4,547 nt of DNA from a virus (IMGVR_UViG_2548876941_000010); one strand, 5' to 3'; shown: positions 792-4,033, counted from the stretch's first letter. Notes: generated by a model not told the origin, from the sequence alone. Numbers and translations are program-made.

Positions 792-1022
792 TCAGTCAGT
801 GTTTCTGGCTAACCAGCGACGCGCGCCAGATTCGGTTTTAAGCGTTTTGCTTTTGGTATACGTCATTGCGGTGAACGTACCGTCCTGGTTTGGGAACACG
901 CCGCACACCAGAGATTCGTTGTTGCCAAGATCGATAGTATCCATGCTGACCTCATTTCCCCTTAACGCCGGGGTAGCGGAACAAAAACCTGCTGCATAGT
1001 TAAAGTTGAACCCTGCCGTCAT
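792..1022 (-). CDS. hypothetical small protein; first gene of leftward operon
   Basis: 76-codon minus-strand ORF with mostly common enterobacterial codons (CTG, CGT, ACC, GGC, AAC). Its TGA stop (794..792) lies 11 nt before the SD-preceded ATG of the next gene, or overlaps the alternative ATG by 1 nt. An internal ATG at 944..942 with a GAGGT SD would give a 50-aa product. The antisense plus-strand ORF 799..999 has poorer codon usage. Confidence 0.45.
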   Translation of the reverse strand: MTAGFNFNYAAGFCSATPALRGNEVSMDTIDLGNNESLVCGVFPNQDGTFTAMTYTKSKTLKTESGARRWLARNTD

Positions 1023-1366: not shown

Positions 1367-1768
1367 TCACGCCAGGCGGCTTTTTTGTGCCGCTAACCAT
1401 CGGGCAATGGTTTCTTCCATTGATTTTTTCTTGTCTTTGATTTCTTGAAGCATTTTTTCCTGGTCTTCCTCAGGAAACGCACTAAAAGCTTGGAGCAGTT
1501 CGCGTTGGCGAGGACCAATTTTCATCGTATCAGGGGTGAAAATTTGCTCCCTCTCTTCAGGAGGCAATAAAAACCAATGCAATGGATGCCCTGTAACCTC
1601 AACCAGTTTATCCAAACTTGAGGCTTTAGGTGTTGCCTTACCGCTGACCCATTGTTGAACAGTTTGCTGTGTCACACCAATTCTACGGGCAAGCTCAGCC
1701 TGGCTCCATCCAGTTTCCTGAAGAAGCTTGCTGATTCTGTACATAGATACTTCTAGGGCGTTCATCAT
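1367..1768 (-). CDS. XRE-family helix-turn-helix repressor (cI/RacR-like prophage repressor), no peptidase S24 domain
   Basis: 133-aa ORF with an N-terminal HTH signature (SQAELARRIGVTQQTVQQWVSGKATP). It is transcribed divergently from a Cro-like gene. The C-terminal ~60 aa is short and shows no Ser/Lys autoprotease motif. The start may be the second ATG (1765), which has a GGAA 4 nt upstream. Confidence 0.8.
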   Translation of the reverse strand: MMNALEVSMYRISKLLQETGWSQAELARRIGVTQQTVQQWVSGKATPKASSLDKLVEVTGHPLHWFLLPPEEREQIFTPDTMKIGPRQRELLQAFSAFPEEDQEKMLQEIKDKKKSMEETIARWLAAQKSRLA

Positions 1769-2580: not shown

Positions 2581-3570
2581 ATGAAGCTCCTTTTTGCTGA
2601 ACGCCCGCTGGTTATAAACACGCAGCTGGCGATGAAAATTGGTCTGAACGAAGCCATCGTGTTGCAGCAGCTGCATTACTGGTTGAGAGATACCGGTTCC
2701 GGCATGGAATGTGATGGTGTTCGCTGGATTTATAACACAACAGAACAATGGCTGGAACAGTTCCCTTTCTGGTCAGAGTCAACGTTAAAACGCGCATTTG
2801 CAAGTCTGAAAACGCTGGGGCTTTTGCGTTGTGAAAAGCTCAACAAATCAAAGCGTGATATGACTAATTTTTACACGATTAATTACGAGAGCGAGCTTTT
2901 AGATGGTGGCAAAGTGAGCGAATCCATCATGTCAAAATGCGCCGCTCCATCAGGTCAAAATGACACGATGGAAGGAGCCAAAATGACACGCTCCATTGGT
3001 TCAAAACGACCCAATGTCATCGGGTCAAAATGGCCCGATGATCTTACAGAGAATACAACAGAGATTACTACAGAGAATACAACAGAGATTACTACAGAGA
3101 ATAAAAACACTTCTCGTCCGGAAGCTTCGCAACCGGACAGGCAGACGGCTGAACAGGATTTTTTAACCCGACACCCTGACGCTGTTGTGTTCAGTGCGAA
3201 AAAACGCCAGTGGGGCAGCCAGGAAGATTTGGCGTGTGCGCAGTGGATCTGGGGGCGAATCGTGAGTCTTTACGAGCAGGCTGCCAGCGATGATGGCGAA
3301 ATCATGCGACCGAAAGAACCAAACTGGACTGCATGGGCCAATGATGTGCGCACAATGCGGATGCTGGATGGCAGAACTCACAGACAAATTTGCGAAATGT
3401 TTGGTCGGGTACAGCGGGATCCATTCTGGGTAAAAAACGTCATGAGCCCGTCAAAGCTTCGCGAAAAATGGGATGAGCTGGTTATTCGTCTGGGGCGTTC
3501 GCCTGTACAGCGTTGCGTGAATCACATTTCTGAACCGGATAACGAAATTCCGCCGGGCTTCAGGGGGTAA
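2581..3570 (+). CDS. phage replication initiation protein (O-like / replisome organiser) with origin repeats embedded in the linker
   Basis: 329-aa ORF with SD GGGAGGGG directly upstream of the ATG. The N-terminal ~90 aa has the winged-helix pattern seen in phage replication initiators (LAMKIGLNEAIVLQQLHYWL ... STLKRAFASLKTLGLL). The central region is encoded by iterons and tandem repeats. The C-terminal ~150 aa is a separate domain I cannot assign. Confidence 0.8.
   Translation: MKLLFAERPLVINTQLAMKIGLNEAIVLQQLHYWLRDTGSGMECDGVRWIYNTTEQWLEQFPFWSESTLKRAFASLKTLGLLRCEKLNKSKRDMTNFYTINYESELLDGGKVSESIMSKCAAPSGQNDTMEGAKMTRSIGSKRPNVIGSKWPDDLTENTTEITTENTTEITTENKNTSRPEASQPDRQTAEQDFLTRHPDAVVFSAKKRQWGSQEDLACAQWIWGRIVSLYEQAASDDGEIMRPKEPNWTAWANDVRTMRMLDGRTHRQICEMFGRVQRDPFWVKNVMSPSKLREKWDELVIRLGRSPVQRCVNHISEPDNEIPPGFRG
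2925..3040. repeat. iteron array (five ~23-bp repeats), putative replication origin
   Basis: Core GTCAAAATG(A/G)C-like motif recurs with its CAAAA starting at 2933, 2956, 2979, 3002 and 3026 (spacing 23, 23, 23, 24 bp). Four units carry their own flanking inverted arms: CCATC/GATGG, GGAGC/GCTCC, CATTGG/CCAATG and CATCGGG/CCCGATG. The first unit is degenerate. Confidence 0.55.
3046..3103. repeat. perfect 24-bp tandem duplication plus partial third copy (A-rich, built from 12-bp subrepeats)
   Basis: ACAGAGAATACAACAGAGATTACT at 3046..3069 is repeated exactly at 3070..3093, then ACAGAGAATA at 3094..3103. It encodes TENTTEITTENTTEITTEN in the replication protein and directly follows the iterons, the usual position of an AT-rich unwinding region. 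Confidence 0.85.
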
Positions 3571-3610: not shown

Positions 3611-4033
3611 GTGGCAAAAGTTTTTACACAAGAAGAGCGGGAAAAAATTAAAGGGCAGGTTGTTGAACTCGTACGCCAGAGTGGGCGCGAGACGTTACGA
3701 CAACTGGAAGCTAAAACTGGGGCAACAAGATATCTGATGAGCGTTCTGGCCAGAGAGCTGGTTGCCAGTGGCGATGTATGCAACTCTGGTTACGGGTTAT
3801 TCCCGTCTGAACAGGCGCGTAAGGACTGGCAAAATGCCCGTAAAAAGCTCTCAAGGGCAAAGCTGAAGAAACCATCTGCGGTTGATCCGGACCTTATCTG
3901 GTCATTACCTGATGGAGAAATACGTCGTTACGACAGGCGTCATAATATGATTTGTACTGAGTGTCGTAAAAGCGAAGTTATGCAGCGCATATTGTCGTTT
4001 TATCAGGGGGATGTTCGGTATTTATTGAAGTGA
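3611..4033 (+). CDS. hypothetical protein, 140 aa, possible winged-helix DNA-binding protein
   Basis: GTG start at 3611 preceded by AGGAGG (3601..3606), 40 bp after the replication gene, so probably co-transcribed. N-terminal helix-rich segment (VVELVRQSGRETLRQLEAKTGATRYLMSVLARELV) and a basic middle region. No family recognised. Confidence 0.55.
   Translation: MAKVFTQEEREKIKGQVVELVRQSGRETLRQLEAKTGATRYLMSVLARELVASGDVCNSGYGLFPSEQARKDWQNARKKLSRAKLKKPSAVDPDLIWSLPDGEIRRYDRRHNMICTECRKSEVMQRILSFYQGDVRYLLK

Follow-up and report, generated by a model that had tools for sequence, protein, structure and literature searches.

The DNA described here is a stretch of 4,547 nucleotides from a virus (IMGVR_UViG_2548876941_000010), which we refer to at its full length as the window, and the gene in question is an open reading frame at positions 2581-3570 on the plus strand. 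It encodes an O-like replication initiator of 329 amino acids that matches PHROG 391, 'replication initiation O-like', with an E value of 6.3e-98 (residues 18-329 on positions 13-298 of the 298-position profile). The middle of the gene holds an array of iterons, an A-rich tract of 12-bp repeats and an imperfect palindrome, one after the other; the repeats take up codons 107-186 of the 329, between the end of the modelled N-terminal domain and the start of the homology to the lambda O protein. We consider it very probable, from the layout and conservation of the sequence, that the block at about 2896-3138 serves a Qin/mEp460-like lambdoid prophage as its vegetative replication origin, located in the linker-coding part of the phage's own O-like gene.

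Cores resembling GTCAAAATGAC start at 2931, 2954, 2977, 3000 and 3024, with spacings of 23, 23, 23 and 24 bp. When up to two mismatches to the core are allowed, the whole window contains seven matches compared with 1.9 expected, and five of the seven are the phased copies. The five iterons at 23-24 bp given in an initial annotation of this DNA are confirmed as a non-chance array, and a position-weight scan adds a degenerate sixth copy that had been missed, GGCAAAGTGAG, with its centre at 2913, exactly one period upstream. There are consequently six iterons in all, spaced 23/23/23/23/24 bp. Further iteron-like matches, at 148 and 3828, do not rise above chance and were rejected, and the window contains no second iteron cluster.

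Numbered from 0 to 5, the iterons differ in how well they fit the consensus and in their symmetry. Iteron 0 (2901-2925, centre 2913) is degenerate, with a position-weight matrix (PWM) score of 20.6 and no dyad in the window; it is kept in relatives, those from Klebsiella and Citrobacter having the core GGTCAAAGTGAC. Iteron 1 (2924-2948, centre 2936) has a good left half-site and an asymmetric right arm, with 4/11 positions complementary. Iteron 2 (2947-2971, centre 2959), which reads CCATCAGGTCAAAATGACACGATGG, contains the exact core, is the best match to the family consensus and has the top PWM score of 33.6; 9/11 of its positions are complementary and it is almost invariant across 36 orthologues. 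The boundaries of iteron 3 (2970-2994, centre 2982) are TGGA...TCCA, inverted with respect to the TCCA...TGGA of iteron 2, and the arms of iteron 4 (2993-3017, centre 3005) are CATTGG/CCAATG. Iteron 5 (3017-3041, centre 3029; TCATCGGGTCAAAATGGCCCGATGA) is the most symmetric, with a dyad of 10/11 positions and a hairpin of -9.4 kcal/mol (z -5.5). The dyad is also clear at centres 2959 and 3005 and is confined to the outer arms at 2982, and dyad symmetry is significant in four of the six iterons. One related copy, from Shigella flexneri SFBU0723 (locus L021), carries one additional A within the A-run of its iteron 1 (CAAAAATG) and has a broken reading frame, and it looks like a decayed version of the same gene and origin.

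The array is followed by an A-rich tract of five ACAGAGA units with a 12-bp period (3045-3104), the proposed unwinding element. A perfect 24-bp tandem duplication had been noted here at the outset, and it is present with 100% identity between 3045-3068 and 3069-3092 (3045-3092 overall), as part of a perfect tandem of the 24-bp unit TACAGAGAATACAACAGAGATTAC that extends over 3045-3103 in 2.5 copies. The 12-bp substructure, which had escaped notice, is reported by Tandem Repeats Finder as a period of 12 with 4.8 copies of ACAGAGAWTACW. The tract is 68% AT (about 3045-3110) with 53% A on the top strand, and the least stable 50 bp of the gene lie at 3057-3107, where dG is -57.5 compared with a window mean of -68.9 and a standard deviation of 5.0. 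The copy number of the repeat was expected to vary between relatives, and it does: 86 of 88 close relatives have three ACAGAGA units in a 966-nt gene that lacks the 24-bp duplication, the other two have four units through an independent 12-bp gain (978 nt), and the window has five through its perfect 24-bp duplication (990 nt). Family-wide the number of units ranges from 2 to 5.

Downstream of the tract is an imperfect palindrome, GTCCGGAAGC TTC GCAACCGGAC (3116-3138), whose hairpin in the window has a free energy of -7.1 kcal/mol (z -2.9). Pairing between the 10-bp arms reaches 88% in 21 relatives, compared with 80.5% when the arms are shuffled and 18-38% when they are slid, and four of the pairs have changed on both sides (GGTTGC/GCAACC, GGTTCC/GGAACC, GGTTTC/GAAACC and GGCTCA/TGAGCC are among the examples). 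A palindrome occurs at the same position in loci L003, L004, L013, L016 and L024-L028; the form found in Edwardsiella (L013) and Scandinavium (L016), TCGTC..GAATTCTGRCGAATCC..GAC, is close to that of lambda, and by position the element corresponds to the inverted repeat that lambda has on the right of its AT-rich tract.

Selection on this block acts at the level of the DNA. We compared diversity among 56 unique close relatives between codons 106-186 (nucleotides 2896-3138) and the rest of the gene, and synonymous codon diversity is 0.023 inside the block and 0.182 elsewhere, a difference of about 8-fold (Mann-Whitney p = 1e-12), whereas amino-acid diversity is higher inside it (0.063 vs 0.038). 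Suppression of silent change in a linker that is itself poorly conserved is the signature of a cis-acting sequence. The same low-synonymous block marks the edges of the element at about 2896 and 3138, which extends past the 2925-3105 of the initial annotation on both sides and takes in the conserved palindrome that it had left out. These data also bear on the explanation that the repeats are protein-coding repeats, forming a low-complexity linker (xGSKxP, TENTTEITTE) that matters as a peptide and has no role for the DNA in cis. The region is translated, six diverged proteins all have TENTTE(I/N)TTE unchanged and slippage repeats are frequent in linkers. However, with a period of 23 bp the iteron core falls in all three reading frames (ATG TCA AAA TGC, GGT CAA AAT GAC and GCC AAA ATG ACA) and yields unrelated peptides, so it is not a protein repeat; in Firmicutes the CAGAGA units are spaced by 11 and 12 nt and fall in different frames with the DNA motif kept; and a peptide repeat does not account for synonymous sites that vary less than their flanks while the amino acids vary more. 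We therefore give this explanation almost no chance of being correct.

The arms of the iterons had been described as different sequences that preserve a dyad, with an inverted pair in every iteron, and their covariation had been read as selection for symmetry instead of sequence. An inverted pair is present in four of the five iterons described at that time, iteron 1 (2936) being without a dyad, and the arms proved to be variants of one half-site consensus, CCATCRGGTCA / TGACCYGATGG. We measured complementarity by shuffling right arms within each origin (44 loci, 208 iterons); a pooled covariation analysis across phages was dropped as it mixes changes of specificity between phages with effects within an origin. 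The within-origin shuffles give an excess of complementarity with z = 5.3, located at positions ±8, ±9, ±11 and ±12 from the centre. Complementary double changes are enriched at ±8 (13 vs 6.7), ±11 (18 vs 13.0) and ±12 (19 vs 11.1), and iterons with inverted boundaries (TCCA...TGGA and TGGA...TCCA) number 27, compared with four that have same-sense boundaries (TCCA...TCCA and TGGA...TGGA). Such figures would favor a model in which the dyads are extruded cruciforms or single-strand hairpins, for example structure-specific loading sites, and in which symmetry, not sequence, is selected; single-strand folding is strong for iteron 5 and for the downstream palindrome, and the palindrome arms show compensatory changes. 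Several results argue against this model. When the loci are thinned to 16 or 9 clades the overall z decreases to 2.7 or 1.9, an excess remains at ±8, ±11 and ±12 alone, and the inner arms (±4-9 taken jointly) show none (z = 0.3 and 0.2). In 36 orthologous sequences, substitutions in the left and right arms are near independence: at ±7 of iteron 5 the counts of GC, GT, AT and AC are 12, 19, 3 and 2, compared with 12.1, 18.9, 3.1 and 1.9 under independence, and the clear exception is ±8 of iteron 4 (T-A 28, C-G 6, T-G 2). Intermediates of the G-T and A-C types are about equally frequent (29 vs 25), so nothing points to strand-specific pairing in hairpins of a DNA strand or of the mRNA. Two of the six iterons have no dyad, and arms that share one consensus are what the half-sites of a dimer would give. 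Selection for symmetry is thus for the most part not upheld, and we regard the cruciform or hairpin model as highly improbable. The simplest reading of the sequences is that the arms would be two degenerate half-sites for a dimeric protein, as in lambda, and that a small extra constraint may act at the shared boundaries of the contiguous array.

The block is widely distributed together with the N-terminal domain of the initiator. By megablast the O gene is present in 3,835 of 5,426 complete E. coli genomes, near full length in 1,747, and the closest E. coli copy is 97.5% identical; the same gene and iterons are found in the isolated phages PhiR42_1, HannyBb and mEp460. The N-terminal domain ranges over Enterobacterales, Pseudomonas, Xenorhabdus, Vibrio, Staphylococcus, Bacillus, Listeria, Lactobacillus and Clostridia, and iterons always come after it in relatives. 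Some 50 diverged loci (Enterobacteria, Pseudomonas, Xenorhabdus, Staphylococcus, Lactobacillus and Clostridia) have it followed by iterons, then CAGAGA repeats and, in Enterobacterales, the palindrome. The family consensus, TCGATCAGGTCAAAATGACCCGATCGA, describes 27-mers, each sharing 4 bp with its neighbor at boundaries of the type TCGA, TGCA or TCCA and TGGA in alternation. Across loci L009-L088, from Enterobacteria to Firmicutes, the period of the array stays at 23 bp (sometimes 22 or 24) despite changes in the half-site, whose inner part differs by phage (GGTCA, GGGCA, GGACA, GATCA or TATCA, with T-A vs G-C covariation at ±4), the pattern expected if the specificities of initiator and iteron are matched. 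The comparison of homologues that had been suggested as a check of the initial annotation returned the conserved period and the variable copy number; covarying arms were mostly not supported. Past the palindrome the C-terminal domains are swapped, being lambda-O-like in the window and Phg_2220_C in relatives from Klebsiella, Pantoea and Staphylococcus, which indicates that the N-terminal domain and the origin travel as one unit.

In most relatives, across phyla, the CAGAGA units begin 15-18 nt past the centre of the last iteron and are spaced by 12 nt, or by 11 and then 12 nt in Firmicutes. As far as can be judged from the sequences, the nucleotide conservation of the phased tract and its fixed offset across phyla exceed what AT-richness alone would predict. 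This arrangement helps to evaluate the possibility that the iterons have mainly a regulatory or exclusion function (autoregulation of O at the level of translation or transcription, copy-number handcuffing or interference with superinfecting phage) and that initiation takes place elsewhere. Plasmid iterons also work in copy control, additional lambda origin copies are reported to be inhibitory to related phages (PMC3349717, PMC4488673), and the computed evidence does not separate binding from firing. On the other hand, the distance to the low-stability tract is constant, tract and palindrome follow in the order annotated for lambda ori, and no other cluster of iterons exists in the window. Regulatory and origin roles are, moreover, mutually compatible, and we believe a mainly regulatory function with initiation at another site to be improbable.

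Residues 147-302 of the initiator (coding part 3019-3486, plus strand) are 35% identical to residues 135-270 of lambda O over 156 columns (BLASTP, E 9e-28). The coding part at 2581-2900 on the plus strand specifies an N-terminal DNA-binding domain that is predicted to be a winged helix: its AlphaFold2 model (pLDDT 84) has a helix-turn-helix and beta-wing topology and ends at about residue 110. This domain is likely the reader of the iterons. Its Foldseek matches are winged-helix regulators and the N-terminal domains of plasmid RepA proteins, with E values of about 1e-2; as these fold matches are generic to winged-helix proteins, we do not claim homology to plasmid RepA. A Pfam search with the initiator gave no hit at E <= 0.01, nor a relevant one for the N-terminal domain at E <= 5, and Pfam and NCBIfam together returned no family for the protein except for its DnaT-like tail. 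This tail, VQRCVNHISEPDNEIPPGFRG, consists of the last 21 amino acids (3505-3567, plus strand) and resembles the end of the host DnaT protein; it matches the extreme C-terminus of DnaT in PDB entries 6aep, 2ru8 and 9zbt (phmmer) and positions 160-179 of the NCBIfam DnaT model, and it was the sole part of the initiator matched in a sequence search of the PDB. Tails of the IPxGFRG type recur in relatives from Enterobacterales that have unrelated C-terminal domains and are not found in those from Pseudomonas or Firmicutes. The resemblance suggests that the tail may mimic a docking motif of the host; searches of the open-access literature on DnaT gave no explanation of the role of its C-terminal tail.

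From these observations we propose a course of iteron binding, wrapping, unwinding and helicase recruitment. Dimers of the N-terminal winged-helix domain would bind the six iterons at their 23-bp spacing, each iteron offering two inverted CCATCRGGTCA half-sites that flank an AAA centre. As 23 bp correspond to about 2.2 helical turns, successive dimers would be rotated progressively round the helix, which could produce a wrapped complex like the O-some of lambda. The strain would then open the adjoining low-stability A-rich tract of 12-bp repeats, 15-18 nt from the centre of the last iteron, and the lambda-O-like C-terminal half, possibly with the DnaT-like tail, would recruit the host helicase machinery. 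The C-terminal half of lambda O is the part that contacts its helicase-loading partner. The palindrome past the tract is a conserved part of the cassette. A more speculative extension, which we hold to be rather unlikely, is that the phased ACAGAGA repeat is a sequence-specific element that acts with the palindrome and, in Enterobacterales, the DnaT-like tail in loading the helicase without a phage-encoded loader, and that the residual compensatory evolution at ±8, ±11 and ±12 reflects a structural requirement of the array beyond that of two independent half-sites. The reader of the repeat could be either the conserved portion of the initiator or a conserved host replisome protein, perhaps with the repeat in single-stranded form, and this reading could be analogous to that of the DnaA-trios at bacterial origins.

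The origin reading draws its strength from features that are observed directly, namely the sequence anatomy of the block, purifying selection on its DNA, its co-inheritance with the N-terminal domain, its homology and co-linearity with lambda ori and its low duplex stability. The lambda-type origin inside an initiator gene put forward in the initial annotation is accordingly supported by comparison, through layout, C-terminal homology, synonymous constraint and low stability. Several points weigh against it. No dyad is found at centres 2936 and 2913 (minimum free energy 0), that is, in two of the six iterons. The N-terminal domain shows no BLASTP similarity to the N-terminus of lambda O and no Pfam initiator domain, and the window has no P-like or DnaC-like loader gene directly 3' of O. 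Part of the low synonymous diversity could come from recombinational homogenisation of the block among prophages. In open-access papers we found neither a mapped origin for this N-terminal-domain family nor binding or origin experiments on this family of initiators. Searches of the open-access literature, outside of which the older papers on lambdoid origins lie, also gave nothing relevant on this type of iteron, on the CAGAGA motif or on in-gene origins of phages with a 'replisome organizer'.

The window corresponds to the immunity and replication region of a Qin/mEp460-type lambdoid prophage. Upstream of the initiator gene are a DUF1391 gene (792-1022, minus strand), a gene for a cI-like helix-turn-helix repressor (1367-1768, minus strand), a cro/YdaS-like gene (1878-2150) and a cII/YdaT-like gene (2134-2559). 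The next gene 3' of the initiator (3611-4033) encodes a DUF977 protein of PHROG 142, 'Ren-like exclusion protein', and fills the slot of lambda P; in phage PhiR42_1 it is named LygF, and that phage has the same arrangement, without a P/DnaC-like loader directly after O. In one relative (L007) the position after O is occupied by a gene for an ATP-binding protein. At gathering thresholds no Rfam family matches anywhere in the window. Apart from the replication region, we observed two related palindromes of 39-41 bp, at 1120-1160 and 1805-1845 and 683 bp apart (ACAATTAAAAACTGTT...AACAGTTTTTAATTGT and ACAATAAAAAACTGT...ACAGTTTTTTATTGT), one of them in the interval that separates the cI-like and cro-like genes, the other past the 3' end of the cI-like gene; they look like a pair of operators. 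Upstream of the left palindrome there is an intergenic run of nine G residues (1097-1105), possibly a slippage-prone tract.

If correct, these results place the likely origin of a very common type of E. coli prophage. The association of a three-part cassette with one uncharacterised winged-helix domain across phyla provides a simple sequence rule for annotating phage origins, and the approximately 50 natural variants can be used to study how the specificities of initiator and iteron change together. The general picture of how a lambdoid origin is built is unchanged.

We compared the locus with three kinds of known systems. In RepA_N plasmids of Gram-positive bacteria the iterons of the origin lie inside the rep gene. 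The initiators of these plasmids (RepA of pSK41 and pTZ2162; PDB 4pql, 5kbj and 4pt7) resemble the window protein in having a winged-helix N-terminal domain and are among the best fold matches, but the match is weak and generic (E 6e-3 to 5e-2, TM about 0.5) and the C-terminal domains differ. Membership of the initiator in RepA_N is supported by neither a sequence match nor a Pfam match, and Foldseek does not separate this family from other winged-helix proteins. The replisome organizers and DnaD-like initiators of Firmicute phages (SPP1 G38P, lactococcal Rep) bind repeats in or beside their own gene. Several PHROGs with such names match parts of the window protein, which has no hit to Pfam DnaD or Phage_rep_org_N, and where relatives of the N-terminal domain occur in Firmicutes, the C-terminal domain is Phg_2220_C.

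The closest parallel is with lambda ori and its six-iteron variants in Stx phages. Lambdoid origins have been described as having, halfway along O, iterons and an AT-rich tract, the iterons being 19-bp imperfect inverted repeats bound by O dimers (PMC7466680), and in its sequence layout the window locus fits this published description. Imperfect inverted arms are already the norm in the iterons of lambda, although the initial annotation had singled out the arms as unusual. The lambda record itself has four ori iterons annotated inside O, spaced 20/24/23 bp, followed by an A-rich tract and then the palindrome TCGTCAGAGAATTCTGGCGAATCCTCTGAC. Shared with lambda ori and the Stx-phage variants are the location of the origin in the middle of the initiator gene, where the linker is encoded, and the presence of 4-6 tandem iterons that are imperfect inverted repeats with a spacing of 20-24 bp (PMC7466680); shared with lambda are, after the iterons, an A/T-rich tract that is A-rich on its top strand, the inverted repeat beyond it, a homologous C-terminal half of the initiator and the gene order cI, cro, cII, O. 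The differences are that the N-terminal DNA-binding domain has no sequence relationship to that of lambda O, that the iteron is CCATCRGGTCAAAATGACCYGATGG in the window and ATCCCTCAAAACGAGGGA in lambda, and that the 27-bp dyads of the window overlap by 4 bp at their boundaries and so form a contiguous array whose 23-bp period is very regular. In the window the AT-rich tract is a phased 12-bp ACAGAGA repeat whereas that of lambda is a homopurine-like run, and, unlike in lambda, no P gene follows O and the C-terminus of the protein is a DnaT-like tail. Taken together, the comparison suggests the well-known lambda design with a different DNA-binding domain and a different iteron, a branch of lambdoid origins that appears to be undescribed.

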